The translations under genes and the position numbers were made by a program. Of a stretch of 32,180 nt of DNA, positions 1,147 to 21,300 are shown piece by piece. The notes beneath the pieces were generated by a model that saw only the letters and a program-made list of their open reading frames with translations, had not been told where the DNA came from and ran no database searches. The first letter of the stretch is position 1. Every line of letters starts with the position of its first letter. Source of the DNA: an uncultured Eubacteriales bacterium (GTDB lineage Bacteria; Bacillota; Clostridia; Oscillospirales; Acutalibacteraceae); the NCBI GenBank assembly GCA_900319255.1, contig ONNU01000158.1:1-32180 (forward strand). Direction: 5' to 3'.

Positions 1147-1159
1147 ACCATGATAAAAT

Positions 1160-1262
1160 ATTAAATTTTTGTAACAATTCTATATTAGAGATAAATCAAG
1201 TGTTATTTGTAACGCTTTTGTACGCTTTGTGATGTATAATATAACATAATGCATAAAAAAAT
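1160..1262 (+). promoter_or_regulatory. Conserved operon-1 promoter/operator block (copy 1 of 2)
   Basis: Near-identical to 14609-14710. Contains the palindromic box TTGTAACAA (1169-1177). Direct repeats TTGTAAC (1207-1213) and TTGTACG (1218-1224) are 11 bp apart. Perfect TATAAT at 1235-1240. There is no TTGACA-like hexamer at a 16-18 nt spacing. Confidence 0.7.
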
Positions 1263-1375: not shown

Positions 1376-1672
1376 ATGACAACAGAAGTAAAAAAAGCAA
1401 ACGGGGCTTACACGATCAAGATAAGCGGAGGTATTGATACCCTTACTGCGCCGGAGCTGGAGCAGACCTTCAAGGAAATCGAGCCGCAGGCAGATAAAGT
1501 CATTTTCGATATGAAAGAGGTCGATTATATTTCATCAGCAGGAATAAGAGTTCTTGTCTATGTACACAGAGCAATGTCATCAAAGGACGGGCTTGTGCTG
1601 CGGGGATTGAATAAAAACGTCAGCACGATCATCAGCCTGACCGGATTTGACAAGGTGCTGACTATCGAGTGA
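1376..1672 (+). CDS. STAS-domain protein (anti-sigma-factor antagonist, SpoIIAA/RsbV-like), paralog 1
   Basis: 98 aa. The ORF-track start (GTG 1313) is trimmed to ATG 1376, which sits 8 nt after AAAGAGG and matches the N terminus of the paralog at 14864. Carries the STAS signature DYISSAGIRVLV, including the Ser that is phosphorylated in SpoIIAA-type proteins, and the C-terminal LTGFDKVL. Confidence 0.9.
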   Translation: MTTEVKKANGAYTIKISGGIDTLTAPELEQTFKEIEPQADKVIFDMKEVDYISSAGIRVLVYVHRAMSSKDGLVLRGLNKNVSTIISLTGFDKVLTIE

Positions 1673-3723: not shown

Positions 3724-6700
3724 ATGAGCAAACTAACCGGAAAGCTGAAAACAGTCTTTGAGGATTATTGCGATAAAACAGCCGTAACCGAGAGCTTTTC
3801 AGGCAGAAGCATCACCTACAGAGAGCTTGATATTCTCAGCGGAAAAATTGCTGCAAAGCTTAAAGCTGACGGGATCGGAAAAAACGATATCGTTCCGATC
3901 CTTCTTCCGAGAAGCTTTGAATATATCGCTGCCGAAATAGGCGCAATAAAAGCGGGCTGTGCATATGCGCCCCTGCTTGACGAATACCCTGCCGAAAGAA
4001 TAGAGTATATCTGCAGCGACTGCGGCGCAAAGCTTGTGATAGACGAGAAATATTTAAGCTTATCAGCAGAGCTTGACCCGCTGACGGAATACGGTGATAA
4101 CGCAGAAAATGACAAAGCCCTGCTGATATACACCTCCGGCTCCACAGGCAACCCGAAGGGTGTTATCCATACGCATAATTCATTTTACGAGGGTGTCAGA
4201 AGGAATATCCTGAATAACGGAATGAGCAAAAGCGACAGGACGCTTGGCATTATCAACTTCAGCTTTGCTTTGTCGGTAGACGAGGTATATGATACGATCT
4301 TCTCCGGCGCAGAGCTTTTTATGCTTGACAATGAAGAAAGAAAGGATATCCGCTTTGTAAAAAGCGCAATCATAGACAATCATGTCACAGCCCTGTATAT
4401 CAATCCGAATATGCTCAAACGTCTCGATCTGCACGGTTCATCTCTGAGGGTCGCGCAGACGGTAGGCGAGCGTTTGTCGGATTTTTATTCAGACGAATAC
4501 AAGATAATAAATGTTTACGGCGCATCAGAAACATTATGTGCGCTGGCATTTGAACTTGATAAAGCATATGACAATACCCCCGTGGGCAAAGCGGTCGACA
4601 GCTTCCGCGCATATATCATTGATGAAAACGGAAACGAGGCTGCGCCCGGCGCGGAGGGTGAGATATGCGTAGCAGGCGCATTGTCCGACGGTTATCTGAA
4701 TCTGGATGAACAGACAGCGGCTGCGTTTTCAAAAAATCCCTTCTCAGATGATGAAGGCTTCAGGACTATTTATCACACCAATGATATAGGCAAAATGCTG
4801 CCGGACGGCAATATCATCTATGTCAACCGCAAGGACTGGATGGTCAAGGTCAACGGTCAGCGTGTAGAGACCGGGGAGATCGAGGTGCGTATCGCTGCAG
4901 ATGTAGAAGCAGTCGAAACAGCTGTGGTCAAGGCCTTTGAAAATGAATACGGCATGACCTATCTTGCCGCATATTATCAGGTCAGAAAGGGAATGTCGGT
5001 AACTTCTGAGGAAATAGAAGCAGTTCTACGCAAAAAGCTGCCTGATTATATGATACCCCGATTCTTTACGGAGATGGATAAGATCCCCCTGAATGCAAAC
5101 GGAAAGGTTGACCGCAAGTCTATCCTTCCGCCTCAGGCAGCATCCTTCAAGGAGGAATATGCAGCTCCCGAAAACGAAACAGAAAAAATACTGTGTACAG
5201 CTTTTGAAAAGATCCTGCGCTGCGGTCAGGTGGGTATAAATGATGATTTCTTTGCCCTTGGCGGCGATTCTCTGCTTGCAATGAATCTGCAGCTGGACTG
5301 CGGACTGCCGGGACTTTCCACAGAGATGATCTTTGCCGGAAAAACCCCCCGGAGGATAGCAGAAAAGCTTCTGTCCTCTGCGCCCGCTGCGGCCTTTGCA
5401 GCTGAAAAGCTCAGCGAATATCCGTTGAATCCATTTGAGCGCGGAATGTATATTGAGCAGAAGCTTACACCGGGATCAACTATGTATAACCTTATCGGCT
5501 TCTACGAGGTAAGCGGCGCATCTGCTGAAAGCATCAGAGCTGCGCTGGAGGAAATTTTCCGCTCCCATGAAGCATTTCATTCTGTATACCGTGAAAAGGA
5601 CGGAACGATACTTCGCGTACTGGTGGATGAGATCCCTGATATCACGATTGAAAAAACAGATGATATCCGTGAGGGCTATGAAGCTGCAAAGGCGCTGAGC
5701 AAGCCCTATGATCTTTCAGCAGGCATTCCTGCAAGAGCCGTTATCTATACTGACGGACAGAGCTGTCTTGTCGCTTTGTTATATCATCACATCATGTTTG
5801 ACGGCGGAAGCGACGGTATTTTTGCGCGGGAGCTTCTTTCAAGGCTCAGCGGCGGAACTCTCATCACAGATAATTACGACCTCAGCGCAGCATCTCAGGA
5901 GGATAAAGAGGCGGCGTATGATCAGGGCTTTGAGAAATACCGTGAGATGTATTCCGACGGCGTACCTGTTACCGAGCTGCCGCTCAAAAAATCACGCCCG
6001 ATGTACCATCCTCATTCTGATACAAACAGGCAATTCATCATTGACGGCGACTCCCTGCAGAACCTCAGACAAGCCGCAAAAGAAAAGAAAACCACCATAT
6101 TCAATATTCTTCTTGCTTCTCTTGCAGCAACAACGGCAAAATACACTGCATCAGAGGATGTTGTTATCGGTGTGCCGGTAAATGAAAGAGACAGTCTTAC
6201 ACAGAATACCATCGGAATGTTTGTCAATACAGCGCCCCTGCGCATAAGACCCGTTCACGACAGATCAGCAGATGAATATCTGATGGAAGTCAGCGATACG
6301 GTCTCGTCCTTTATCAAAGAAAACCACTGCCCCTATGACCGCCTTGTTGCAGAGCTTGTCAAAGAGCGCAGCGACAGCCGCAATCCATTGTTTGATGTGG
6401 GCATCAACTATATTCCCATGCGCAAAGAGTATGAAAACGGCGGTATCTCTATCAGGACATCATATATCCTCCAGTCCTCCGGCAAGGATATCAATTTTGT
6501 CATGCAGGCAGAGGAAAGCAGGATCACCTGTTATGCACAGTATTCCTCCGAATTGTTTGATGATGATATAATCAGTAATTTCATAGAGCAGTTTATTTTT
6601 ACCGCTGAGAATCTTTGCTCAGGCGCAGGAACTGTACAGGAGGCTGCAAAGCTTCCCCTGATACAGAAGAAAGCGCTGGAGAGCTTCTCTACATCTTCGC

Positions 6701-9700
6701 TTGCATATGTTCCTGTAAAGCTGCTGCATAAGATGTTTGAAGCTGCGGCAGATAAATATCCGGAGAAGACCTCCCTTATCGCATGTGATCGTTCTCTTAC
6801 CCTTGCGGAGCTTGAAAGCGAAGCTAACAGAACTGCAAATGCGCTGATCTCCAGGGGTTTCAAAAAGGGAGAATGCGCAGTCATCATGCTCAGCCGCACC
6901 TCACGCTTTTTTGCAGCGCTGTTCGGTGTTCTGAAAGCGGGAGGAGCGTTCATTCCCACAGACCCGGCATATCCTGCGGAGCGTATTCACAGCGTACTTG
7001 ATGACAGCGAGGCGCGCTTTGTTATCACAGACGAGCCGAATGAAGAGTATGATAACTGTGTTACCATAGACGAGCTTCTTTCCTGCGCAGATGATACAAG
7101 ACCGGAAATCGAGGTAAGCCCTGATGATCTTGCATATATGATCTACACCTCCGGCTCCACCGGAAAGCCAAAGGGCGTAATGCTGCGCCACATCGGCATA
7201 TGCAGCTATCTTACCCCGAATAAAGCAAATCTCCATATGCAGTATCTTTACGATCATATCAGCACCTATCTTTCCATAACAACGGTCGCATTTGATATGT
7301 CATTCAAGGAGCACTGTGCCACCCTGTGCAACGGCAAAACGCTGGTATTTGCTTCTGATGAAGAAATGAACAACCCCAAGCTTCTTGCGGAGCTTATGGA
7401 TAAATACAAGGTCGACTGCATCAACGCTACTCCGTCAAGACTTCAGCAGTATCTGTTTGTTGAAGCCTTCCGCAGATCAATTGCAAACTGTAAATGCGTG
7501 ATATCCGGCGGCGAGGGCTATCCGCTGGCGCTGCTTAAAAATTTAAAGGAGTATGCGCCGGATGCCTGCATTTTCAATACCTATGGACCGACTGAGATCA
7601 CCGTTTCCTCAAATGTTGCTGATCTGACCCATGCAGAACAGATCTCCGTCGGCAGACCTCTGCTCAACTATATTGAATATATCGTGGATAAAAACGGCAG
7701 TCTTGCGCCCTTCGGCGTTACAGGCGAGCTTTATATCGGCGGTATCGGTGTAGCAAAGGGCTATAAAAATCTGCCGGATAAAACCGCAGCCTCATTTGTT
7801 GATTACCGCGGTCAGCGCATTTACCGTTCCGGCGATTTTGCAAAATGGGACAAGGACGGCAATGTGCTGATACTTGGCAGAATGGACAACCAGGTCAAGC
7901 TGCGCGGACTGCGTATTGAGCTTGGCGAGATAGAAAGCGTAATTGAAAGCTATGACGGAATAAAGGAAGTAGCCGTTGCTATAAAAACCATAGCAGGAAC
8001 GGAGCACATTGCGGCGTATTACACAGCGGATTCTGAAACAGACCCGAACGCCGTCAGAGAATATGCCGCATCAAAGCTGACACATTATATGGTTCCCACA
8101 GCTTATCTGCAGCTTAAAGAAATGCCGTATACGCTCAACGGCAAAAAGGATATGAAAAACCTGCCCGAGCCGCAGCTTCTCAAAAATTCCGCTCCGGATA
8201 GCAGCTCACGCAAGCTGACTAAATTTGAAAAAGAGCTTTGCGGGATCGCCGGAAAAGCGATCGGCTCAGAAGTAACGGACGTTTCTTCAAGCCTTGTAAG
8301 TCTCGGACTTACCTCGCTGAATGCAATTGCATTTACGACCTTTGTCGAGGAAAAATACGGCTGTGATATCCCGGTAGGAAAGATAATGCACGGCATGAGT
8401 ATTATTGAAGCAGAGGATCTGATCTATGATCACCTGATGCAGGGCGGCGCAGGAAAAGCAGAAGCAGACCTGCAGGCTGATATCCAGGAAACCTATCCGC
8501 TTTCAAATAATCAGCTCGGAGTTTATTACGAGGTCATGAAAAAGCCCGAGGAGCTTATGTATAATATGCCCCTTTGTTATTGCTTTGAAAGCGTAGATGC
8601 ATACAGACTGAAGGCTGCGCTTCTGAAGGCACTCGCAGCTCATTCCTATATGAACACGCACATCGAGATCAGAAGCGGCAACCTTGTTCAGGTAAGAAAT
8701 GATAATGCTGATCCCGTGATCCCGATAACCGAAATGACATATGAAGAGCTTGAAAAACGTAAAAATGAATTTGTACGCCCGTTTAATCTTCATTCGGATC
8801 TGCTCTACCGTTTTGAGATCATAAAGTCAGACAGCAGGACATATCTGCTTTCCGATATTCACCATATAATCTTTGATGGTCTTTCACGGGGAGTATTTAT
8901 GGATGCAGTTTCAAAGGCTTATGCAGGCGAAGAGCCGGGAAAAGAAAAGCTGAGCTATTTTGAATATGCATTGAATGAGAATAAGGAAAAGGATTCCGAA
9001 AGCTATCGTGAGTCAGAAAAATACTTCTCCGATATGCTCAGTAAATTTGAATCTGTCAGTGAGATCCCTGCTGATAAGAAGGGACGCTCAGAGGACGGAC
9101 GCATTGGTGTTGTGGAAGTGCCGATGGAGCGTGACGCAATGGAGCAGTTCTGCCGGAAGAATTCAGTAACGCCGTCGTCATTGTTCCTTGCTGCGACCTT
9201 CTACACAGTTTCACGCTTTACCAACAGCAGGAATGTCTATATCTCCACAATTTCCGGAGGCAGAAATGACAGCAAGGTGCGCAGGACTATCGGAATGTTC
9301 GTACATACCCTGCCGCTTCATATGAGCTTTGAAAAGGATATTACAGCAGGAGAGCTTATCGAAAGCTCAAATCAGGCAATGCTTCTCGATGTGGAGCATG
9401 AAAACTATCCGTTTATGCAGCTTGCTGATAAATTCGGCTATTCCACGGAGATTATGTATGAATGCCAGCTCGGTGTAGGCGGGGCAAAGCGTACTGTAGG
9501 CGATGCTGAATATTCCACAGAGTTCATGAAGCTTGAAACGCCGAAATTCAAGGTGACCATCGCCATAGAGGACAGAGCAGACGGAATTGCTGTTTCCATA
9601 CGCTATAACGATGCGGTATATACAAGAGAATATATGCTCACTCTCGCTGATTCTATAAAAAATGCAGCTCAGAGAATGATCACAGATGCGTCAGCATCCG

Positions 9701-12700
9701 TAAGGGAAATATCTCTTCTCAGCGACAGCGAACAGCAGGAGATGGAATCCATCAGCTGCACAGCCTGCGAAGAGCCTGCATCAGAGCTGCTTCATAAGCT
9801 TTTTGAAAAGAGCGCTGCTGAAAATCCCGATAATACGGCATTGATCGCTTGTGACGCTTCGCTGACCTATACACAGCTGAATCAGAATGCCAACCGTATC
9901 GCTCATATGCTGATAAATGCCGGTGTAAAGCCAAGGGACAGCGTAGTATTGCTGCTTCCCCGCAGAAGCTATTATTTTGCTTCGCTGTTCGGCGTGCTGA
10001 AAGCGGGCGCAGCATTTATCCCCTGCGATCCCGAATATCCTGCTGACAGGATCAGGCATATTATCGGTGACTCAGACGCAGCATTCATAATCACGACCGA
10101 AGATCATATGTCTGATTATCCTGCTGAAAAGGCATTGCTGATAGACGATCTTCTTCTCGGTAACGAAACGGATAATCCCGATGTTGAGATCAGCGGCAGT
10201 GACCTTGCATATATGATCTACACCTCAGGCTCTACAGGCAAGCCCAAGGGCGTAATGCTCACACATAAGGGCATATGCAGCTTCTGCACGACACACAGCG
10301 CAAATATCCTGTATCAGCTTGTAGAAAAGGAAATCAATACAATGCTGGCAGTGACCACTGTATCCTTTGACCTTTCATTAAAGGATACAGTAGGCATACT
10401 GTGCAGCGGCAGGACGGTCGTTTTCGCTTCTGAAACAGAAATGAATGACCCGCGTGCGCTTAAGCTGCTTATCGAAAGCAATAACGCCGATGCAATGAAC
10501 GCTACCCCGTCACGCTATCTGCAATATATGGAATACGAGCCTTTCAGAAAGGCTCTCAGCCGCTGCAAGCTGGTAATGGCAGGCGGCGAAGCATTCCCTG
10601 CAGCTCTGATGGAGCAGCTGAAGGAGCTTGGCATCCCGAATATCATCAATACCTACGGACCCACTGAAACCACTATTTCAAGCAATATGGCATTCCTGCA
10701 AAACGCAGATCATGTATCCGTGGGAAGACCGCTGCTCAATTACCATGAGTATATAGTGGATATTGACGGAAACCCTGTTCCAAAGGGAGTGACAGGCGAG
10801 CTTCTTATCGGAGGCTATGGCGTTGCGAGAGGCTATAAGAATCTGGATGAGCAGACTGCTGCAAGATTCATCGACTACCGCGGCGAGCGTGTCTATAAAT
10901 CAGGCGATTATGCAAAATGGGACAGCGATGGCAATGTTATCATACTTGGCAGAATGGATAACCAGGTCAAGCTGCGGGGACTGCGTATCGAGCTTGGCGA
11001 GATCGAGGGTCTTATCGACGAGCAGCCTCATATCAAGAAAGCTGTGGTTGTCATTAAAAAGCTTGCGGGCGTTGAAAACCTCTGCGCTTATTATACAGCC
11101 GATTGTGAGATCAAGCCCGAGGAGCTTAAACAGGAGCTTGCAAAATCCCTGACCCATTATATGGTCCCGACAGCTTATCTGCAGCTTGATACCATGCCGG
11201 TGACACCAAACGGCAAGACCGATCTGAAAGCGCTTCCCGATCCGGTAGCAGTTACCTCAGGCGAGTATTCTGCGCCGAAAAATGAAACAGAGGAATATTT
11301 CTGCGGGCTGTTCAAAAAGGTATTGAAGCTTGAAAAGGTAGGAGCAACCGACAGCTTCTTTGAGATCGGCGGCACATCGCTGCTTGTCACCTCTGTTGTC
11401 ATTGAAGCAGCTGAGAACGGCTATGAGATAACCTATGGCGATATTTTCCGCAAGACCACTCCCCGGGAGCTTGCAGAGATGTTCACATCAGAGGACGCAG
11501 ACGAAGGTGTTCGTATCGTTGATTTTGATAATTACGATTATTCAAAAATCAATGAAATGCTTACTCATAACAATATAAAAACTCTTTGCGAGGGCGAACA
11601 GCGACCCATCGGAAATATCATGCTCACGGGAGCTACCGGCTTTATGGGAGCACATGTTCTTGCTCATTATCTTAGCAGCGAGACCGGCAGAGCTTATTGT
11701 CTTATCAGAAAAGGAAAATTCGATTCACCCAAAGAGCGTCTGAAAAACATTTTCTTCTATTATTTTGAAAGCGAGCTGGAGAATGAATTTGACAGCCGCG
11801 TTACGGTATTGGACGGCGATGTTACCAATTACGATCAGTTCGTTCCCTTTGAAACGCTGCCCATCGACACCGTTTTCAACTGCGCTGCCAATGTCAAGCA
11901 TTTCTCCAACGGAACGGATATTGAGGATGTCAATGTAGGCGGCGCGCAGAACTGCGTAAAGCTTTGTAAAAAGATCGGCGCAAGGCTTATACATTTCTCC
12001 ACCACCAGCGTATGCGGCGCAAGCGTGGATAATCAGCCTCCCGCAGGCACTGTGCTTGACGAACAGTCACTTTATATCGGACAAAGACTGGATACCAAGT
12101 ATACCAATTCAAAGCTTCTTTCCGAGCGCGTAGTTCTTGAAGCAGTGGCAGATAATAAGCTTGATGCAAAGGTCATCCGTGTGGGTACTCTTTCCGCGAG
12201 AGAAAAAGACGGTGAATTCCAGATCAATTTCCTTACCAATAACTTTATGGGACGCCTGCGTTCATTTGAGATCATCGGCTGTTTCCCGTATTCCATGATA
12301 AATTCACCCGTATGCCTGAGTCCTATTGACGAAAGCGCAAAGGCATTTTTCGCGCTTGCAAAAACGCCGAAGGAATGTTGTCTGTTCAACTGCACCAATA
12401 ACCATTCTGTACCTCTTGCCGATATAATAACCCAGATGCAGAGATCAGGAATGAACGTAAAGCTCACAGATGATAATGTATTTGCAGAAGCCTTGTCCGC
12501 TGCCGAAAAGGATCCGCAGAAGGCTGCCATTCTTTCAAGTATGCTTGCCTATAAGAATATGGCGCACGGAAAAATGCTTGTTCCGATCCTTCCTGTGAAT
12601 AACTATACAACACAGGCGCTGGCAAAAATGGGATTCCTGTGGAAGCCCAGCAGCGAGAAATATATGCTTGATTTCATTGCTGCGCTTTCATCCCTTGACT

Positions 12701-12729
12701 TCTTTGACAATACTAATCTGAGCAGGTAA
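3724..12729 (+). CDS. Trimodular NRPS with terminal reductase: A-T-C-A-T-C-A-T-R
   Basis: 3001 aa; RBS AAGGAGAGG at 3711-3719. A3 motifs: LIYTSGSTGNPKG (about 4120-4160) and AYMIYTSGSTGKPKG (about 7132-7180 and 10204-10255). A10 is NGK-x-D. Carrier Ser codons: 5269-5271 (GGDS), 8314-8316 (GLTS), 11377-11379 (GGTS). HHxxxDG at 5785-5805 and 8860-8880. Reductase motifs GATGFMG (11629-11649) and YTNSK (12100-12114). Confidence 0.97.
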   Translation: MSKLTGKLKTVFEDYCDKTAVTESFSGRSITYRELDILSGKIAAKLKADGIGKNDIVPILLPRSFEYIAAEIGAIKAGCAYAPLLDEYPAERIEYICSDCGAKLVIDEKYLSLSAELDPLTEYGDNAENDKALLIYTSGSTGNPKGVIHTHNSFYEGVRRNILNNGMSKSDRTLGIINFSFALSVDEVYDTIFSGAELFMLDNEERKDIRFVKSAIIDNHVTALYINPNMLKRLDLHGSSLRVAQTVGERLSDFYSDEYKIINVYGASETLCALAFELDKAYDNTPVGKAVDSFRAYIIDENGNEAAPGAEGEICVAGALSDGYLNLDEQTAAAFSKNPFSDDEGFRTIYHTNDIGKMLPDGNIIYVNRKDWMVKVNGQRVETGEIEVRIAADVEAVETAVVKAFENEYGMTYLAAYYQVRKGMSVTSEEIEAVLRKKLPDYMIPRFFTEMDKIPLNANGKVDRKSILPPQAASFKEEYAAPENETEKILCTAFEKILRCGQVGINDDFFALGGDSLLAMNLQLDCGLPGLSTEMIFAGKTPRRIAEKLLSSAPAAAFAAEKLSEYPLNPFERGMYIEQKLTPGSTMYNLIGFYEVSGASAESIRAALEEIFRSHEAFHSVYREKDGTILRVLVDEIPDITIEKTDDIREGYEAAKALSKPYDLSAGIPARAVIYTDGQSCLVALLYHHIMFDGGSDGIFARELLSRLSGGTLITDNYDLSAASQEDKEAAYDQGFEKYREMYSDGVPVTELPLKKSRPMYHPHSDTNRQFIIDGDSLQNLRQAAKEKKTTIFNILLASLAATTAKYTASEDVVIGVPVNERDSLTQNTIGMFVNTAPLRIRPVHDRSADEYLMEVSDTVSSFIKENHCPYDRLVAELVKERSDSRNPLFDVGINYIPMRKEYENGGISIRTSYILQSSGKDINFVMQAEESRITCYAQYSSELFDDDIISNFIEQFIFTAENLCSGAGTVQEAAKLPLIQKKALESFSTSSLAYVPVKLLHKMFEAAADKYPEKTSLIACDRSLTLAELESEANRTANALISRGFKKGECAVIMLSRTSRFFAALFGVLKAGGAFIPTDPAYPAERIHSVLDDSEARFVITDEPNEEYDNCVTIDELLSCADDTRPEIEVSPDDLAYMIYTSGSTGKPKGVMLRHIGICSYLTPNKANLHMQYLYDHISTYLSITTVAFDMSFKEHCATLCNGKTLVFASDEEMNNPKLLAELMDKYKVDCINATPSRLQQYLFVEAFRRSIANCKCVISGGEGYPLALLKNLKEYAPDACIFNTYGPTEITVSSNVADLTHAEQISVGRPLLNYIEYIVDKNGSLAPFGVTGELYIGGIGVAKGYKNLPDKTAASFVDYRGQRIYRSGDFAKWDKDGNVLILGRMDNQVKLRGLRIELGEIESVIESYDGIKEVAVAIKTIAGTEHIAAYYTADSETDPNAVREYAASKLTHYMVPTAYLQLKEMPYTLNGKKDMKNLPEPQLLKNSAPDSSSRKLTKFEKELCGIAGKAIGSEVTDVSSSLVSLGLTSLNAIAFTTFVEEKYGCDIPVGKIMHGMSIIEAEDLIYDHLMQGGAGKAEADLQADIQETYPLSNNQLGVYYEVMKKPEELMYNMPLCYCFESVDAYRLKAALLKALAAHSYMNTHIEIRSGNLVQVRNDNADPVIPITEMTYEELEKRKNEFVRPFNLHSDLLYRFEIIKSDSRTYLLSDIHHIIFDGLSRGVFMDAVSKAYAGEEPGKEKLSYFEYALNENKEKDSESYRESEKYFSDMLSKFESVSEIPADKKGRSEDGRIGVVEVPMERDAMEQFCRKNSVTPSSLFLAATFYTVSRFTNSRNVYISTISGGRNDSKVRRTIGMFVHTLPLHMSFEKDITAGELIESSNQAMLLDVEHENYPFMQLADKFGYSTEIMYECQLGVGGAKRTVGDAEYSTEFMKLETPKFKVTIAIEDRADGIAVSIRYNDAVYTREYMLTLADSIKNAAQRMITDASASVREISLLSDSEQQEMESISCTACEEPASELLHKLFEKSAAENPDNTALIACDASLTYTQLNQNANRIAHMLINAGVKPRDSVVLLLPRRSYYFASLFGVLKAGAAFIPCDPEYPADRIRHIIGDSDAAFIITTEDHMSDYPAEKALLIDDLLLGNETDNPDVEISGSDLAYMIYTSGSTGKPKGVMLTHKGICSFCTTHSANILYQLVEKEINTMLAVTTVSFDLSLKDTVGILCSGRTVVFASETEMNDPRALKLLIESNNADAMNATPSRYLQYMEYEPFRKALSRCKLVMAGGEAFPAALMEQLKELGIPNIINTYGPTETTISSNMAFLQNADHVSVGRPLLNYHEYIVDIDGNPVPKGVTGELLIGGYGVARGYKNLDEQTAARFIDYRGERVYKSGDYAKWDSDGNVIILGRMDNQVKLRGLRIELGEIEGLIDEQPHIKKAVVVIKKLAGVENLCAYYTADCEIKPEELKQELAKSLTHYMVPTAYLQLDTMPVTPNGKTDLKALPDPVAVTSGEYSAPKNETEEYFCGLFKKVLKLEKVGATDSFFEIGGTSLLVTSVVIEAAENGYEITYGDIFRKTTPRELAEMFTSEDADEGVRIVDFDNYDYSKINEMLTHNNIKTLCEGEQRPIGNIMLTGATGFMGAHVLAHYLSSETGRAYCLIRKGKFDSPKERLKNIFFYYFESELENEFDSRVTVLDGDVTNYDQFVPFETLPIDTVFNCAANVKHFSNGTDIEDVNVGGAQNCVKLCKKIGARLIHFSTTSVCGASVDNQPPAGTVLDEQSLYIGQRLDTKYTNSKLLSERVVLEAVADNKLDAKVIRVGTLSAREKDGEFQINFLTNNFMGRLRSFEIIGCFPYSMINSPVCLSPIDESAKAFFALAKTPKECCLFNCTNNHSVPLADIITQMQRSGMNVKLTDDNVFAEALSAAEKDPQKAAILSSMLAYKNMAHGKMLVPILPVNNYTTQALAKMGFLWKPSSEKYMLDFIAALSSLDFFDNTNLSR
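11605..12726 (+). other. Terminal SDR-type thioester reductase (R) domain of NRPS 1
   Basis: Rossmann motif LTGATGFMGAHVL, then HFSTTSV, then YTNSK (Y-x-x-x-K). No thioesterase motif follows the last carrier domain. Confidence 0.85.
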
Positions 12730-12734
12730 AAGCT

Positions 12735-14465
12735 ATGAAAAGAAAAGGAACTTTGCTACGAAATAAATTCAATGAGTATCTGATGTCCACCCTTGCCATG
12801 AGCGCATCGCTGTACCTTGCTGCTATTGTCGATAATATCATGGTGGGTAATATTCTCGGCACAGATGCTCTTGCGGCGGTGAATCTTACATCCCCGCTTG
12901 TCTATGTCAAAAATATCGTTTTCAGCATTTTCATCTACGGCGGCAATACGCTTGTCGCCATGTACAAGGGCAAACGCGATAATAAAAGCGCTGACAAGGC
13001 ATTTACATTTTCGCTGCTGTTCGGAATAATCGCATCAACGATCGTGATGACTGCCGGTATTCTTTTAGCTCAGCCAACTGCTACGTTCCTGTCGCAGGGG
13101 GGAGCGCTGTATGAAAATGCATTTGCGTATATCATTCCCCTGTGGGCAAGCGGACCGCTGATTGTTCTCAACAGCGGCTCTGCTGCCTATGTCAGGACAG
13201 ACGGTCTGAAAAAGCTTGCGATAGCCCTCCCCATATCTTCCAATGTAATCAATCTTGCGTGCGATTATATTTTTATGAAATGGTTCGGCTGGGGTGTTGC
13301 AGGCGCAGGATGGGCAACGGTTGTAGGCTATGCTATCGGCTCATTCCTTCTGATCATTTACTTTACTTCAAAGCAGCGCACCGTGCATTTTGTAAAGGTG
13401 TCATTCAGGGATATAAAGCAGCTTGCGGGAGTTCTTCAGACCGGACTTCCCACAGCGCTTATCCATGTCTGCAATGCTGTCCGCACCTATACGGTCAACG
13501 GCGTTATCCTTGCATCAGCAGGAACAGTGGGAATGCAGGTGGTAACGATCTGTTTGTCAGCGTTCAATGTTGCGCTGATCTTCATAAACGGCTCTGCAAC
13601 AACGCTTATGCCTATCTGCGGCGCCCTTTACGGAGAGCGTGACAATAACGGCGTCAGATATGTATTAAAGTTTTCGCTCATTGTCACGGAGATTATGTGC
13701 TTTGTTGTTCTTGCGGTGTTTGAGCTTTTTCCGGTGGCAGTCGGCGGATTGTTCGGAAAGCTTTCTCCCGAGACCGCCGCGCAGCTTGAGGGCGCTTTGC
13801 GTATATTCTCGGTCTGCATACCCTTCTATGGTATCTCCTATATTTTAAGAGCCTTCTATCAGTCAACCAAACAGCGGGGAGCTGCTTCACTCTTTACAAT
13901 ACTTGAGGGCGTGGTATTCATCGTTCCGATGATCTATATTTTCTCCAGAACCAGTCAGACGCTGATGTGGCTGTCCTTTGCATTGGCAGAGATAGCTGCG
14001 ATCATCACTACTGCGCTTACCATGCAGATCATTGCAAAGCGCAAAAAGCTCGGCAGCTTCCTTATGATAGACAGCTCCGGTGAATCGGGAGTGCTGGATA
14101 TGACGATAGATAATGAGGTCGAAAGCGCCGTTGTCGCATCGAGAAAGATCAGGAAATTCTGTAATGAAAATAATATCAGCGATACCCTCAGCACGATACT
14201 GACCGTTACCTCTGAGGAGCTTGCAGTCAACGCTGCAAAATATGCCTACAAAGGTAAAAGCGAAATTGATGTCTGCCTGAGAATTCTCGAAAACAAACTG
14301 GTGCTGAGATTCAGGGATAACGGTATGATATTCAATCCCACAGAATATATAGACGACTCGGGAAAAGAAGTCACCGGACTTCTGGTTGTCCGCAAGCTCA
14401 CTCCTGATATCAGCTATAACCGTGTTCTTGGCTTCAATGTTACTGTTGTTACTCTTGACAGATGA
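12735..14465 (+). CDS. MATE-family efflux transporter fused to a C-terminal RsbW/SpoIIAB-like domain, paralog 1
   Basis: 576 aa; starts 5 nt after the NRPS stop. The N-terminal ~445 aa are multi-helix with a MATE-like start (LAAIVDNIMVGNILGTDALAAVNL). After a KRKK stretch the tail reads SEELAVNAAKYAYKG and RFRDNGMIFNPTEYIDDSG. Confidence 0.88.
   Translation: MKRKGTLLRNKFNEYLMSTLAMSASLYLAAIVDNIMVGNILGTDALAAVNLTSPLVYVKNIVFSIFIYGGNTLVAMYKGKRDNKSADKAFTFSLLFGIIASTIVMTAGILLAQPTATFLSQGGALYENAFAYIIPLWASGPLIVLNSGSAAYVRTDGLKKLAIALPISSNVINLACDYIFMKWFGWGVAGAGWATVVGYAIGSFLLIIYFTSKQRTVHFVKVSFRDIKQLAGVLQTGLPTALIHVCNAVRTYTVNGVILASAGTVGMQVVTICLSAFNVALIFINGSATTLMPICGALYGERDNNGVRYVLKFSLIVTEIMCFVVLAVFELFPVAVGGLFGKLSPETAAQLEGALRIFSVCIPFYGISYILRAFYQSTKQRGAASLFTILEGVVFIVPMIYIFSRTSQTLMWLSFALAEIAAIITTALTMQIIAKRKKLGSFLMIDSSGESGVLDMTIDNEVESAVVASRKIRKFCNENNISDTLSTILTVTSEELAVNAAKYAYKGKSEIDVCLRILENKLVLRFRDNGMIFNPTEYIDDSGKEVTGLLVVRKLTPDISYNRVLGFNVTVVTLDR
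14093..14462 (+). other. RsbW/SpoIIAB-like (HATPase_c_2-type) tail domain of exporter 1
   Basis: N-box-like EELAVNAAKYAY and G1-like DNG. The lid region has only one Gly (EVTGLLVVRKL). Boundaries are approximate. Confidence 0.7.
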
Positions 14466-14519: not shown

Positions 14520-14577
14520 CCGACTCCCGTAGATCAGAAATAGCACTGATTTTCAGGGTGTCGGGGCGTTTTCTTTT
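14520..14577 (+). terminator. Probable rho-independent terminator ending operon 1
   Basis: CCGACTCCC (14520-14528) pairs with GGGTGTCGG (14556-14564) with one mismatch. There is inner ATCAG/CTGAT pairing, followed by GGCGTTTTCTTTT. Confidence 0.55.
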
Positions 14578-14608
14578 ATCGCCGCAGACGTTTTCAGAGT
14601 AATGAATT

Positions 14609-14710
14609 ATTAAATTTTTGTAACAATTCTTTATTAGATAAAAATAGCCTGTTTTTGTTACGCTTTTGTACGCTTTTTAATGTATAATATATATAATGCA
14701 TAAAAAATCA
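14609..14710 (+). promoter_or_regulatory. Conserved operon-2 promoter/operator block (copy 2 of 2)
   Basis: TTGTAACAA (14618-14626), TTGTTAC (14655-14661), TTGTACG (14666-14672) and TATAAT (14683-14688). The 11-bp phasing and the 17-bp distance from the proximal box to the -10 are the same as in copy 1. Confidence 0.7.
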
Positions 14711-14863
14711 GGATAGTCAGATATTCTGATTAGGATATTTTATTATTCTGTGAATATGATGTATCATTTTCACTTTCCACTGATGTGAGCTTTGTTTTGT
14801 ACGGCGGACGTGGGAATGATACTTCAGCAATAACCAGAAAAAACTAAGAAAGAGGTATTTGCT

Positions 14864-15160
14864 ATGACAACAGATGTAAAAAATGAAAATGAGGTTTACA
14901 CAATTATGATCAGCGGCAGGATAGATACTCTTACCGCGCCTGAGCTTGAGCAGAAGTTCAAGGAGATCCAGCCGGATGCAAAAAAGGTCATATTTGATAT
15001 GAAGGATGTGGAATACATTTCATCGGCTGGAATGAGAGTGCTTGTTTATGTCCACAGGGAAATGTCATCGAAGGACGGACTTGTTCTTCGCGGACTTACC
15101 AGAAACGTCAGCACCATCATCGGACTTACCGGATTTGACAAGGTACTGAATATTGAGTGA
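14864..15160 (+). CDS. STAS-domain protein (anti-sigma-factor antagonist-like), paralog 2
   Basis: 98 aa with RBS AAGAAAGAGG upstream. By my count 79 of 98 residues are identical to the STAS protein at 1376-1672. The EYISSAGMRVLV motif is retained. Confidence 0.9.
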   Translation: MTTDVKNENEVYTIMISGRIDTLTAPELEQKFKEIQPDAKKVIFDMKDVEYISSAGMRVLVYVHREMSSKDGLVLRGLTRNVSTIIGLTGFDKVLNIE

Positions 15161-15352: not shown

Positions 15353-15365
15353 ATTACGAAGTTGA
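15353..15365 (+). repeat. 13-bp direct repeat ATTACGAAGTTGA, copy b
   Basis: Exact match to 15167-15179. Lies immediately 5' of the NRPS-2 RBS AAAGGAG. Confidence 0.85.
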
Positions 15366-15382
15366 GTAAAGGAGAATGCGTA

Positions 15383-18300
15383 ATGTACCAGAGTATCATC
15401 CGGAAAATTCTGGATAATGTCAAAAACGCCCCCGACACCATCGCGATCATTGACCAGGGCGAGGGCAATCAGTTTACCTACAGTGAATTTGAAGCATATG
15501 CTCGCAGGGTAGCAGGAAAGCTCAGCCGTCTGGGAGTGAGCCGCAATGACTTTGTAACGATCGAGCTTCCGAGAAACAAGGAATATATCGCATCAATGGC
15601 AGCTGTATGGATGACGGGAGCAGCATTTGTGCCTCTTTCACCGGCATACCCTGCCGAGAGAGTGCAGTTTATCCGCAGCGACTGCAGCGCAAAGGCTGTG
15701 ATCGACAGCGCCTTTTTAGAAAATATAGGAAACGAAGCTCCCATTGAAGATATTGCTTCAGTCGAACCCTCCGATCATTCCCTTATGATATACACCTCAG
15801 GCTCGACCGGAAAACCCAAGGGTGTACTTCATTCCCATCTCAGCATCAGCGACTCTGTATTCCGCTTTCTGGAATATGCAGACAGCCCCGCAGGCTTCCG
15901 TGCGGCGGTAGGCGCGCCGTTTACATTTGTTGCATCGGTGCAGGGCGTATTTGAGCCGCTTTGTGCCATTAACACCGCGGTGCTTGTTCCGTATGAGGCA
16001 ATGCGCGACCCTGTTCTGCTGGCAGATTTTATTGAGCAGTACCAGGTGAACAGATGTTTTATCAGCCCCAAAATGCTCAGGGTATTCAAAGCAAAGGGCA
16101 ATTCCCTTAAAATCGTATCCACCGGCAGCGAGCGTGTTTCAAATACATACAGCGCAGATTATACGATACAGGTAGCCTACGGTCAGACAGAATCCGCAGG
16201 CGCTGTTATGATGTTCAGAATTGATAAGAAATATGATAATACTCCCATCGGCAAGCCCATCGGAAATGTAAAGGCTTATCTTCTGGATGAAAATAATCAG
16301 CCTGCCGATGAAGGCGAGATGTGCCTTGCAGGCAATTTTGCAACAGGATATCTGAATCTGCCCGAGCTGACAGAAAAGACCTTTATCCCGAACCCCTTCT
16401 TTGAGCAGGACGGATTTCCGAAGCTTCTCAAAACAGGCGATATCTGCAAAAAAGGCGAAAACGGCAATTATATCTATCTGAACCGCAAGGACTGGATGGT
16501 CAAGATCAACGGTCAGCGCGTAGAACCGGGAGAGATCGAAGCTGTACTTAAAAACACTGACGGAATAGCCGATGCTGCGATCAAGGATTTTAAAAATACC
16601 TTCGGACAGGTTTATCTTGTCGCATATTATACAGAAAAGGAAGCAGTTGACGTTGAAGCGCTGAAAGCAAAGGTCTCCGCGCAGCTGCCGCCCTATATGA
16701 TACCCTCGTTCTTTGTCAGACTTGATAAGCTGCCGGTTAACCAGAACGGCAAGCTGGACAGAAACGCTCTGATCCCTCCCGAAGCAGGCGAATTCAAAAA
16801 TGAATACGCTGCTCCTGAAACAGAGCTGCAAAAGGCTCTTTGCTCAGCATTTGAAAAGATACTCGAAGCGGAGAACGTAGGTATTGACGATGATTTCTAT
16901 GCTCTCGGCGGAGATTCCATAAAGAGCGCGATGATTGCCCGTGAATGCGAGGCTTATCATCTTTCCACAGCTGTTATCCTTGCGGGCAAAACTCCCCGCG
17001 GTATCGAGCATATGATAAAGCGCTCAGCGCAGAAGGCATCTGTTGTCAGAAAGGAAAACAAGCCCAAGGTCTATCCGCTGACTTCCTCTGAACGGGGAAT
17101 GTATCTGGAGCAGAAGCTTTATCCTGATTCTGTTTCCTTCAACCTGAATATCGGCGTGATGATAAGCGGTGCAGACGCCGAAGCTGTCAGAACAACACTG
17201 GAGAGCATTTTCTCCTCACATGAAGCCTTCCGCTCCACCTACGGCGAGGAAAACGGTCTTCCTGTCCGCATCGTTACTGACAGGCTGCCCCAGATCATTG
17301 AAAAGACAGCCGCAGCAAGGGAAGATGTAATTAAGATAATTGACAGCTATGCCGAACCGTTTGATCTTTGCGCTGATATCCCGGTGCGCCCCACGCTTTA
17401 TACTATCTCAGACGGCGAGGTCATTCTCCATATGGCTATCCATCATATTGCTTTTGACGGCGGCTCTGCAAAGCCCTTTATCACAGAGCTGATTGACGGC
17501 TTGAACGGAAAAATGCCGGAGGCTGCTACGATAGATCTGTCGGATCTTTATGATTGTCAGACGGAGGAGCAGCATGAAAACGGACTTGCTTATTATCGAA
17601 ATGTCTTTGCCGATGGAGTTCCCGTGAACGAAATGCCGACTAAAGCCCGCCGCCCGAAGGTACATCCGGTTTCCGACCGGGAGATCGCCTTTGATCTCGA
17701 CACTGCTAAGGCAAGGCTGATGGATAAAGCTGCGCGCAAATTCGGCGTAACAAGATTTGAGCTGATCTTTGCGGCTATTTCTATGGCTCTCGGAAAGTAC
17801 ACCTCTTCCGAGGACGTTGTGCTGGGTATTCCCACCGATATGCGTCCCAACGGAGCGGAGGGTGTTATTGGAATGTTTGTCAATACAGCTCCCGTGCGTG
17901 TAAAACCGGTAAGAAGTATGGAGCTGAACGATTATTTTGCCGCTGTAAGCGAAGCTGTGCGCGGAGCTACATATGGAGCATCCCTGCCCTTTGAGGATAT
18001 CGTGGCGGAATTTGTCAAAACGCGCGACGAAAGCCGCAGCCCCATATTTGATGTCAGCGTAAACTATCTGCAAAAGCCGGCTGTTTACCGCAGCAGCGGT
18101 CTGATTGTGGATATGTATTCTCCATTGCAGAACATGACCCGTGATATAGCCATTGTCATAAGCAACAGCGAGGATGGTATGCGCTTCGTTGCAAGGTATT
18201 CCGGAGAGCTGTTTGAGGATGATATGATCGAAAGCTTCCTCGGACAGGTAAGGCATACTGTTGATATCTTTACAGGCAGCGAAGCTAAAACCGTCCGGGA

Positions 18301-21300
18301 TGCTCTTGCTTTGCCGGAAGCGCAGGCTGAGCGTCTGGAGGCATTTTCATCCGAAGCGACCGCAGAAATATCCGATGTACTGCTACACCGTGTCTTTGAA
18401 AGGGCAGCGTCAGCTTCACCGGAGAAAACAGCGCTCATAGCCTGCGATAAGACCGTAAGCTTTGAAGAGCTGAATAACAATGCGAACCGTATCGCCCACA
18501 GCCTTATGGAAAAAGGCATAAAGCCGGGTGACAGCGTTGTTCTGCTGCTGCCGAGAAGAAGCTTCTATTTTGAAGCAGTATTCGGCGTTTTGAAATCAGG
18601 CGCAGCCTTTGTACCCTGCGACCCTGAATATCCTCCGGACAGGATAAGCCACATTACCGAAGATTCCGGTTCGCGCTTTATCATAACGACAGAGGATCGC
18701 GCAGCAGATCATCCCTCCGAAAAGACGCTTATCATACATTCACTTTATGAAAACAGTGATACAGAGGATCCGGACGTTCAGATGTCAGGTCAGGATCTTG
18801 CGTATATGATATATACCTCAGGCTCCACAGGCAAGCCAAAGGGCGTTATGCTGACCCATGCCGGTATATGCAGCTTCTGCACCACACATCATGCAAATAT
18901 CCTGTATCAGCTTGCCGATGAGCAGATAGATACCATGCTTGCTGTCACCACCGTATCATTTGACCTTTCCCTCAAGGATACCCTTGGTATTCTTTGTAAC
19001 GGCAAGACCGTTGTATTTGCCTCAGAAACGGAGATGAATGATCCTCGTGAGCTGACAGCCCTGATAAATAAGAATCATGTGGACGCGATGAACGCAACAC
19101 CGTCCCGTTATATGCAGTATATGGAATATGAGCCATTCTGTGAAGCGCTCAGAGGCTGCACATTGGTAATGGCAGGCGGCGAGCTGTTCCCGGCAGCCTT
19201 GCTTGAAAAGCTGAAATCCCTTGAGATACCTCATATTATCAACACCTACGGTCCTACGGAAACTACCATATCCTGTAATATGGCATTTCTGCAGAATTTG
19301 GATCATGTCACAGTCGGAAGACCGCTGCTGAATTATAAAGAATATATTGTTGATAAATTCGGAGATCCGGCTCCCTGCGGAGTAGTAGGAGAGCTGTATG
19401 TGGGCGGACCGGGTGTTGCAAGAGGCTACCGGAATCTGCCTGAAAAAACAGCTCAGTCATTTGTTGATTACCGCGGACAGAGAATGTACCGCACAGGCGA
19501 TTATGCAAAATTTGACAGGGAAGGCAAGGTCTATATTCTCGGCAGACTTGACAGTCAGGTCAAGCTGCGCGGTCTGCGCATTGAGCTTTCCGAGATAGAG
19601 GAGCTTATCGCAGCGCAGCCTCACATTAAAAAAGCAGCTGTTGTCATCCGCAAGCTGGGAGGACAGGACAATCTCTGCGCCTACTTCACAGCCGATACGG
19701 AGATCGACATTAACGCATTGCGCAGCGAGCTGAAAAAGCATCTTACACATTATATGGTTCCGGCTGCATTTTTACAGATGGAGGAGCTGCCTGTTACAGC
19801 AAACGGCAAGACCGATACAAAGAGCCTGCCCGAGCTTACACTTGAAGCCCGGCAGACCACAGCGCCTCAAAGCGAAATGCAGCAGCGCATATTTGATATT
19901 GCTGCGGAGGTTCTCGGCAATAGCAATTTCGGAATTGAAACCGAATTGTATGCAGCAGGTCTGACATCACTTAACAGTGTAGGCTTCTGCATCAGACTCA
20001 GCGATGCATTCGGAGTGACCGTTCAGATCCGTGACCTGCGGGATAACGACACCATTGAAAAGCTTGAAGTCTTTATCAGGACGCTTGAACAGCAGGATAC
20101 CGAGGAATTTGAGATATTTGACGAATACTCCATTACCAAAACACAGGAGGGCATTTTCTTTGAAACAATGTCCCATCCTGATATTACGATCTATAATATC
20201 CCCACGCTTCTGAAGATAGATAAAGCAATAGATACGGAACGCCTGAAAAAGGCTGTGGCTGCTGCTGTCAACGCTCATCCGTACCTGATGACAAAAATGT
20301 TCATCAGCAAGATGGGTGAGATCAGACAAAAGAGAGCCGAAAGAAGCTTTGACGAAAGCGAGATCACCGATATCCGCTGCGGCAATATTGAAGAGGTAAA
20401 GAATGACCTTGTAAAGCCCTTTGATATTGAAAATGAAAAGCTGTACCGTTTCAGCGTGATCGAAACAGACGAAGGAAAATATCTGTTCCTTGATATACAC
20501 CATATTGTATTTGACGGCGAATCAAAGAAGATACTTCTGCGTGATATCACCGCAGCATATAACGGCGAAACGCTTACACCTGAAAAATACAGCGGCTATG
20601 AAGCTGCTTTGTCTGAGCAGAAGCTCCGCGCAGGCGAGCATTATGACAGATCAAAGAAATACTATACCGAGCTTCTGGACGGTGTTGAAAGCGACTGTCT
20701 GCCCATCGGCGATGTTCTTTCCGATTCTCAGAAAAAAGACGGCGGTACGCTGAATTTAAGCGGAAAAGAAAGCGTCCCATCATCTGTCAGAGCGTACTGC
20801 GCTGAAAATCATGTCAGTGAAAATGCATTCTATACAGCTGTATTCGGCTGGCTTCTTGGCAAATACTGCGGCAGAGAGGACGACTCATTGTTCATGACTG
20901 TCAATAACGGAAGAAACGATCCCCGTTTCCGTGACAGCGTATCCATGTTTGTACGCACATACCCCGTACTTTGCAAGCTCAGCACCAATTCTGTATCCGA
21001 CTATATCAGCGAGATCGGCAAACAGCTGTCAGACAGCCTGCAATATGACGTATATTCCTTTGCAGAGATAAGCCATGACCTTCATGTAAGCGCTGACGTG
21101 CTGTTTGTATATCAGAGCACCATGACTGACGGAAAAACATTCACCTTCTGCGGCGAAAAGGCAGAGAACGTCCCCCTGACCTTTGACGAGGAAAAGGCAA
21201 AGATCGAGCTGCTCATTTATCCCAACGGCGACACCCTGAGCTATCATGTTTCATATGATGCAAACACCTATACCGAAGATTTCATCCGGGATATGCTTGC

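Follow-up and report, generated by a model that had tools for sequence, protein, structure and literature searches.

The partner switches RsbU-RsbV-RsbW and SpoIIE-SpoIIAA-SpoIIAB are the closest described relatives of the system presented here. In most known cases a partner switch controls a sigma factor, and outputs of another kind are just emerging, as in the Anabaena example of 2026. We analysed a stretch of 32,180 nucleotides from an uncultured Eubacteriales bacterium of the Acutalibacteraceae (contig ONNU01000158.1 of assembly GCA_900319255.1, hereafter the window), in which an RsbW/SpoIIAB-like domain forms the C-terminal tail of a MATE exporter of 576 residues (12735..14465, + strand). 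The tail shares with RsbW and SpoIIAB the fold, the Glu and Asn of the N-box, the G1 signature D-x-G-x-x-F-[DN] and a Glu facing the serine of the STAS partner, and, like theirs, its gene is accompanied by those of a STAS protein and a PP2C phosphatase. Contrary to these proteins, it is fused to the C-terminus of a MATE transporter with 12 transmembrane helices and has no linked sigma factor; moreover, its ATP lid is shortened and its G2 box is reduced from G-G-L-G to x-G-[LI], leaving its kinase activity in doubt. We favour, with a probability of roughly 55%, the reading that the tail docks STAS, as a probably kinase-poor arm of a partner switch whose output is the pump.

A similar pairing occurs in mycobacteria. 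In M. smegmatis, phosphorylation of RsfB is the work of RsbW2 alone, and RsbW1 and RsbW3 group with the anti-sigma factors that lack kinase activity (PMC7693655). Likewise, the present locus has two RsbW-like modules per STAS protein: a putative binder, comparable to kinase-negative RsbW1/UsfX, which binds although it lacks kinase motifs, and a kinase with N, G1 and G2 boxes, comparable to kinase-positive RsbW2. The mycobacterial binder holds SigF; the one described here belongs to a transporter, with the kinase-type module carried by the phosphatase protein.

The combination of PP2C with an RsbW-type kinase is that of Rv1364c (PDB 3ke6) and of HsbR- and SypE-type proteins, and recurs in a neighbouring 656-residue sensor; its best NCBIfam phosphatase match is SiaA, at 54.8 bits far below the cut-off of 700. 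The systems of Rv1364c, HsbR, SypE and SiaABCD use STAS-like substrates, and the output of SiaABCD is not a sigma factor. A transporter partner is reported for none of them.

STAS- or phosphorylation-dependent control exerted directly on an enzyme or transporter, as we propose here, is exemplified by the partner switch acting on the Anabaena glycosyltransferase HenR/All4160 (PMC13555669 and a bioRxiv version; 2026), by the action of MlaB on MlaF (PMC7367683) and by SLC26/SulP transporters, of which STAS domains are a part (PMC8256260). In those cases STAS is fused to the target or binds it, whereas here the anti-sigma-like partner is fused and STAS is free; none of them involves a MATE transporter. 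A preliminary description of this DNA, made from the sequence alone, had invoked the SulP/SLC26 family as a precedent. Transporter-linked STAS does exist, but the likeness is an analogy only: there STAS sits inside the transporter, and here it is the anti-sigma-like partner that does. MATE is not mentioned in the STAS review cited (PMC8256260), and we found no published description of a MATE and HATPase_c_2 fusion in the literature on MATE exporters, partner switching and Ruminococcus nonribosomal peptide synthetases (NRPSs), the gut-cluster annotation of peptide-aldehyde clusters being unchecked. A MATE pump with the anti-sigma-like partner embedded in it is not among the non-sigma outputs that we found.

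As for the transporter itself, ClbM (colibactin; PDB 4z3n), GntT and WgkD are likewise MATE exporters of natural products encoded within a cluster; here the MATE gene comes directly downstream of the NRPS. ClbM is a structural match of the MATE core; with GntT and WgkD the sequence match is weak and falls far short of the NCBIfam cut-offs. A regulatory tail is described for none of the three. Finally, reductase-terminated NRPS clusters of the gut and rumen make peptide aldehydes (ruminopeptin, rup; Guo et al. 2017, in the summary given by PMC12327764). As far as that summary goes, the 1977-residue NRPS found beside relatives of the fusion, with its A-C-A-T-R domain order, fits the dipeptide-aldehyde type of the ruminopeptin clusters (PMC12327764). 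The two NRPSs of the window are larger (3001 and about 4020 residues) and should make longer peptides.

A MATE exporter with an RsbW-like tail

The fusion gene starts 6 nt past the stop codon of NRPS 1 and runs through its 576 codons without interruption. As first described, transporter and tail are one protein with no stop or frameshift between them, and all the strings quoted at that time are present: AKRKK at residues 434-438, SEELAVNAAKYAYKG in the N-box region of the tail at residues 493-507, and RFRDNGMIFNP at residues 526-536. The two-part layout stands as well, with boundaries that differ from the original estimate of some 445 plus 120 residues: residue 436 closes the last transmembrane helix, and the tail, once folded, measures about 125 residues. 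They are separated by a linker (residues 437-451) that has no predicted secondary structure and contains the least confident block of the junction, with a predicted local distance difference test score (pLDDT) of 72. Pfam recognises MatE in two stretches (E 8.8e-22) and HATPase_c_2 (PF13581) at residues 461-566, the latter with 31.0 bits in the whole protein and 35.7 bits in the tail alone, for a gathering score of 27.4 bits. The full-length AlphaFold2 (AF2) model, made with the family alignment, reaches a pLDDT of 89.1 and a predicted template modelling score of 0.83.

The best Protein Data Bank (PDB) match of the core in Foldseek is the inward-facing PfMATE structure 6fhz (template modelling score, TM-score, of 0.84 on the target, over 448 aligned columns). 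Further MATE structures, ClbM included, rank below it; phmmer aligns the core with PfMATE at E 3e-22. D33, invariant in the family, aligns with D41 of PfMATE, and D177, conserved in at least 90% of the family, with D184. As these match the two proton-coupling aspartates of PfMATE, the core looks functional. Both features checked for the MATE family are found, namely two MatE repeats with 12 transmembrane helices and the H+-coupling acidic residues, and the gene product is predicted to be a functional-looking, H+-coupled exporter of the DinF/PfMATE type. With the 12 helices taken from the model, the loops contain 18 lysines and arginines on the inside and 1 on the outside, which places both termini in the cytoplasm. 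The helix count, the charge bias and the PfMATE-like structure thus agree with the 12-helix topology proposed earlier, and the tail lies inside the cell rather than outside.

In the AF2 model, the tail (residues 452-576) is folded in the order beta-alpha-alpha-beta-beta-lid loop-alpha-beta-beta; modelled alone, it reaches a pLDDT of 90.1. Its best 18 PDB matches in Foldseek are all RsbW, SpoIIAB or UsfX, with TM-scores of about 0.73-0.85. The top ones are RsbW 6m37 (RsbV/RsbW complex, E 7e-8), SpoIIAB 1l0o, 1th8, 1tid and 1til, and M. tuberculosis UsfX 8ih8 and 8jzt. After these 18 come Rv1364c, the ATP-binding domains of histidine kinases, and SiaB, here from the SiaB-SiaC pair. By sequence, a single-sequence search of the PDB returns VraS alone, at E 0.2; the tail family profile reaches B. 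subtilis RsbW at E 0.004, over a span from the N-box to the G1 box. The preliminary assignment of an RsbW/SpoIIAB-type GHKL domain is therefore upheld by two lines that agree, a Pfam score above gathering and a predicted Bergerat fold nearest to RsbW, SpoIIAB and UsfX.

In the tails of the close family, L496, R527, D528 and G530 are invariant, and E494, E495 and N499 are each kept in at least 90% of the members; Y503, D512, F533 and P535, then T547, G548, L549, R553, Y561, R563, G566, N568 and T570, are also invariant or nearly so. In a set of 127 diverse tail-type domains, the EE pair is present in 98%, the Asn of the N-box in 87%, the Asp of G1 in 95% and its Gly in 99%. Profile alignment with RsbW pairs E495 with E49, N499 with N53 and E494 with S48. 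An N-box is thus present where it had first been seen, but the pattern matched then is one residue out of register: the true motif is E495-x3-N499, equivalent to E49-x3-N53 of RsbW. In the RsbV/RsbW structure, S48 and E49 of RsbW hydrogen-bond Tyr53 and the phospho-acceptor Ser56 of RsbV, E49 being the partner of Ser56 (PMC7340262). The STAS proteins of the fusion loci keep the equivalents of both residues in the motif Y-[IV]-S-S-A-G, whose phosphorylatable serine is retained in 32 STAS orthologues.

The D-x-G noticed at the outset is indeed part of an RsbW-like G1 box (R-D-x-G-x-x-F-[ND]-P), but no canonical G2 box was found downstream of it. Aligned by hhalign, the tail family and the PP2C-fused kinase domains are homologous over the full domain (probability 99.1, E 3.7e-19); the ATP lid of the tail is 5 residues shorter, and a 2-residue deletion turns GGLG into TGL. 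Subfamily-wide, the lid lacks 5-7 residues relative to the canonical neighbouring kinase. The G2 region of the 127 tail-type domains has a single Gly (87%) followed by Ile or Leu, with Gly absent from the six commonest residues at the canonical second-Gly position. It follows G1 at a distance of 19-21 residues in this set, against about 27-30 (manual count from sequences) in RsbW, SpoIIAB and the PP2C-fused kinase. Altogether, the tail displays the PF13581 score, the Bergerat fold, the N-box (E-x3-N) and the G1 box (D-x-G) of RsbW and SpoIIAB, and lacks their G2 G-x-G with a full-length lid. As this feature fails and no sigma factor is linked, we do not file the tail as an RsbW orthologue.

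From these motifs, the adenine and Mg pocket is probably retained and the phosphate-binding loop altered; kinase competence appears doubtful. With the G-x-G loop and part of the lid lost, the tail is probably a STAS receptor more than the main kinase, and would work like the STAS-binding half of an RsbW. The same losses weaken the phosphorylation module considered in the preliminary description, as does the canonical kinase on the neighbouring PP2C protein. The alignment of that kinase domain to RsbW runs through the G2 box, and its GGLG is kept across 26 orthologues; set against the lid and G2 deletions of the tail type, this supports a division of labour.

The same conservation can be read differently. 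If the tail were an active SpoIIAB-like kinase, the pump would sense flux: its transport cycle or substrate load would control the phosphorylation of STAS, which would then act elsewhere. Such a kinase would account for the nearly invariant Glu and Asn of the N-box and Asp and Gly of G1, for the match of E495 to the RsbW E49 that lies beside the acceptor serine, and for the conserved serine of STAS. In addition, sequence searches with the tail also match the short-lid ATP-binding domains of the histidine kinases VraS and DesK. VraS and DesK are active kinases. However, the G-x-G of G2 and 5-7 residues of the lid are gone throughout the subfamily, a complete kinase already resides on the phosphatase protein, and the neighbourhood encodes neither a sigma factor nor another alternative target of STAS. 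We consider an active pump-borne kinase unlikely, though it is the rival that we take most seriously.

The short lid, the single-Gly G2 and a C-terminal Y-x-R...N-x-T make the tails a recognisable RsbW-like subfamily that appears specialised for binding and not for catalysis. This signature could improve annotation, as the database names of the relatives are currently 'ATP-binding protein' or 'MATE family efflux transporter'. A single close relative, P0012 (583 residues, from a paralogue group 71% identical), has a decayed tail: TAKKLRRSAAKYAH replaces EEL..N in the N-box, VDGPAF stands in the G2 region, and HATPase_c_2 is no longer recognised by Pfam.

The fusion and its neighbours in other genomes

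Of the 120 relatives listed with the whole protein as query, 113 carry both PF01554 and PF13581; identities span 44-100%, and full-length members nearly all measure 576-586 residues. Precomputed Pfam annotations already show the architecture, for which NCBIfam has no model of its own. An exhaustive phmmer search with a 132-residue tail against 1.84 billion representatives returned 689 matches at E<=1e-3, of which 132 reach E<=1e-10; a word-indexed homologue search with the tail alone yielded 10 short fragments. We tallied the architectures of 157 sequences, made up of the best 150 phmmer matches and those of an earlier tail search. All 93 proteins longer than 243 residues have an N-terminal part homologous to the MATE core; the others are short, mostly fragments.

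Among species-representative genomes, the hosts are many rumen and gut Ruminococcus, with the complete genomes of strains JL13D9 and JE7B6 among them, Acutalibacteraceae, Lachnospiraceae, Selenomonas ruminantium and a metagenome-assembled genome (MAG) of the Synergistales; the closest match there, 85% identical, comes from a MAG of a rumen Ruminococcus. JL13D9, JE7B6 and Selenomonas ruminantium S137 are cultured strains. That an assembly or sequencing error fused a MATE gene with an independent small gene of the RsbW type, the concern voiced in the preliminary description, can be dismissed almost entirely. The architecture of about 577 residues recurs in more than 100 independent protein clusters from many assemblies, the linker region is gap-free across the family alignment, and the window itself holds a diverged second copy. 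The short tail-only database entries that might speak for an artefact are mostly fragments from short contigs. As the fusion is kept in many assemblies, in complete genomes and in the second copy of the window, chance and artefact are excluded: it is real and under selection.

Three proteins found along the way depart from the common layout. In P0171 (786 residues) and P0192 (754 residues), a tandem pair of HATPase_c_2 domains comes after MatE; P0171 has a tail-type domain with a single Gly in first place and a kinase-type domain with GGLG in second, which also speaks for a division of labour. In P0126 (217 residues; locus L047, 24-716), the end of an NRPS adenylation domain (AMP-binding_C) is joined directly to a tail-type HATPase_c_2, and the protein may be a deletion remnant of an NRPS and a MATE-tail gene.

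We surveyed the neighbourhoods of 45 other loci with the fusion, within the sequence available. An NRPS is immediately adjacent in 34 of them; STAS is found in 26 and PP2C in 26. Where 4 kb or more of sequence is available on each side (31 loci), the counts are 27 with an NRPS and 20 with STAS or PP2C. The 11 others are mostly filled on one flank by an NRPS of 7-10 kb (manual tally), and their module could lie just beyond it, as in the window. Where the NRPS has about 2000 residues, STAS is present in 18 of 19 loci (manual tally). The order annotated by Pfam is STAS, NRPS (A-C-A-T-R), MatE+HATPase_c_2, SpoIIE+HATPase_c_2. The linkage of STAS and PP2C-kinase to the fusion, seen first in the window, is thus syntenic in most of the well-flanked loci.

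Four observations weigh against a tail devoted to STAS docking. First, about one third of the well-flanked loci show neither STAS nor PP2C within 10 kb, and their module may be distant or absent. Second, a locus of the Bacteroidota (Paludibacteraceae MAG, L048, 3-13261) combines a reductase-terminated NRPS and a tail-less MATE (28% identity) with a 426-residue open reading frame (ORF), a free 135-residue GGLG kinase and STAS; a partner-switch module can therefore accompany such a cluster without a fused pump tail. Third, the near-invariant N-box Asn, G1 Asp and Gly and catalytic-type Glu leave room for residual kinase or ATPase activity. Last, the two STAS proteins of the window are 80.6% identical and the two tails 51.6%, which strict one-to-one co-evolution would not give; possibly, the STAS pair is so conserved as both members must fit the single PP2C-kinase.

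The first two observations would also suit a tail that is independent of STAS. By sensing ATP and ADP or by dimerising, it would tune or oligomerise the pump, and the partner-switch genes would act on another target, for instance NRPS activity or transcription. RsbW and SpoIIAB dimerise through beta1 and alpha1 (PMC7340262), and these elements are present in the models of the tail. Nevertheless, STAS and PP2C-kinase keep a strongly conserved order where the flanks allow it to be seen, up to the near-constant STAS beside NRPSs of about 2000 residues. The Glu pair that would contact STAS is conserved, and outside its own family the tail has its nearest homologues in the PP2C-fused kinases that these loci encode. 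We hold a STAS-independent tail to be improbable, more so than an active kinase.

An anti-sigma factor anchored in the membrane is a third possibility, with the tail holding a distant sigma factor, STAS releasing it and MATE serving as anchor or sensor. The fold is that of an anti-sigma factor, and the top structures include sigma-bound SpoIIAB and UsfX. On the other hand, a sequence search of all loci, with queries that did detect sigma-like ORFs, found no sigma factor gene in the window and one among the 45 other loci. Furthermore, the MATE core keeps its transport residues and directly follows the NRPS, and the control of transcription seems to fall to a response regulator together with the duplicated promoter block. 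We regard such an anchor as very improbable.

Other loci vary in their accessory genes. In Selenomonas ruminantium, the genes that come after the pump encode a dCache_1-HAMP-PP2C sensor, a GGLG kinase and a condensation-domain protein, both free-standing, and STAS; the dCache_1 domain thus belongs to the counterpart of the sensor of the window (L046, 11743-13920). In the Synergistales MAG (L039, 8718-9944), STAS is joined to a domain of some 300 residues that resembles an aminoglycoside phosphotransferase or a protein kinase of the eukaryotic type (HRDYNLKN...DLG); this STAS fusion lies directly upstream of the MATE-tail gene, apparently frameshifted in that MAG. One Ruminococcus cluster is flanked on either side by LuxS genes (L001, 2469-2993 and 14767-15147). 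In another locus, a PGA_cap (CapA-like) gene stands between PP2C-kinase and STAS (L002, 11861-13048), and a similar unannotated gap of about 1.1 kb occurs at this place in many other Ruminococcus loci.

A proposed control of export after translation

By its gene content, the window has the parts expected of a partner switch: STAS with a phosphorylatable serine, and a PP2C phosphatase with a serine kinase. Under our preferred reading, in which the tail is the docking arm, the membrane sensor would set the phosphorylation state of STAS on an extracytoplasmic cue. We infer that unphosphorylated STAS would dock on the tail of the pump, as RsbV does on RsbW. Docking would change the activity of the pump, and export would be controlled after translation. 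What the pump would most likely export is the product of the adjacent NRPS, which ends in a reductase; by analogy with the dipeptide-aldehyde clusters of the ruminopeptin type, this product is probably a peptide aldehyde. The arrangement suggests that a phosphorylation-driven partner switch controls export directly rather than through transcription.

MATE exporters are generally treated as constitutive pumps, regulated through transcription only. In rumen and gut NRPS clusters of the peptide-aldehyde type, the fusion offers a testable case for the post-translational control of natural-product export; such cluster types make inhibitors of host and microbial proteases. In its boldest form, which we put forward tentatively and at slightly less than even odds, the cascade would have a secondary-active transporter as its output in place of a sigma factor: a kinase-dead RsbW-like receiver on a MATE exporter would bind unphosphorylated STAS and gate the release of reactive peptide aldehydes, inhibitors of proteases, within seconds of an extracellular cue perceived by the PP2C-kinase sensor. 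It would then be the first described on/off switch of a MATE exporter that works after translation, and the first anti-sigma-like module embedded in a transporter.

Organisation of the window

The window contains two NRPS operons, each with its own STAS protein and fusion protein, and one PP2C-kinase sensor (Table 1).

Table 1 Features of the window, by position (all on the forward strand of the contig).
Feature	Position	Strand	Basis
Response regulator: REC and weak winged-helix/SARP-like C-terminal domain	293..1099	+	Pfam Response_reg 55 bits, Trans_reg_C weak
Promoter block upstream of STAS 1: repeated TTTGTAAC-like sites, extended -10 (TGTATAAT)	1157..1262	+	
STAS protein 1, 98 residues, 80.6% identical to STAS 2	1376..1672	+	Pfam
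Membrane sensor, 656 residues: transmembrane segment, extracytoplasmic domain, transmembrane segment, HAMP, PP2C (SpoIIE), RsbW-type kinase	1742..3712	+	Pfam
NRPS 1, 3001 residues, C-terminal reductase-type domain	3724..12729	+	ORF; orthologous loci
MATE-RsbW-like fusion protein 1, 576 residues	12735..14465	+	ORF; Pfam MatE and HATPase_c_2; AF2
MATE core, residues 1-436, 12 transmembrane helices, both termini inside	12735..14042	+	Foldseek, phmmer, Lys/Arg count
Basic stretch (RKK) and flexible linker, residues 437-451	14043..14087	+	AF2
Cytoplasmic RsbW/SpoIIAB-like GHKL domain (tail), residues 452-576	14088..14462	+	AF2, Foldseek, Pfam
N-box E494-E495-L-x-x-N499-x-x-x-Y503	14214..14243	+	Family conservation, RsbW alignment
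G1 box R527-D528-x-G530-x-x-F533-x-P535	14313..14339	+	Invariant residues; aligned with RsbW ADEGDSFD
Degenerate G2 box T547-G548-L549...R553, behind short ATP lid	14373..14393	+	hhalign; 127 tail-type domains
Duplicate promoter block upstream of STAS 2	14610..14712	+	Near-identical to first block
STAS protein 2, 98 residues, 400 nt downstream of fusion gene 1	14864..15160	+	Pfam STAS E 3e-14
NRPS 2, about 4020 residues, C-terminal reductase-type domain	15362..27451	+	ORF
MATE-RsbW-like fusion protein 2, 580 residues from MERNGRL	27462..29204	+	MatE and HATPase_c_2, 39.2 bits

STAS 2 scores 64.7 bits with the NCBIfam model for anti-sigma factor antagonists (ant_ant_sig; cut-off 53.45). In the sensor, Pfam identifies SpoIIE (178 bits), HATPase_c_2 (54 bits) and HAMP, and has no match for the extracytoplasmic region of about 170 residues between the two membrane segments. 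Loci orthologous to that of NRPS 1 show the domains AMP-binding, Condensation, PP-binding and NAD_binding_4. The reductase regions of NRPS 1 and NRPS 2 are 57% identical; the two fusion proteins are 45.5% identical overall.

The promoter blocks are about 100 nt long and nearly identical, with repeated sites of the type TTTGTAAC, TTTGTTAC or TTTGTACG and the extended -10 element; each is preceded by a GC-rich hairpin. As such blocks stand before both STAS genes, the two NRPS operons look co-regulated, and the response regulator encoded at the start of the window is perhaps a candidate for the transcriptional regulator of both. Past the stop codon of the first fusion gene, at about 14520-14580, CCGACTCCC and, some 27 nt further, GGGTGTCGG form a hairpin followed by the T-run GGCGTTTTCTTTTAT. 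Read by eye and missed by the automatic terminator scan, it is likely a long-loop terminator.

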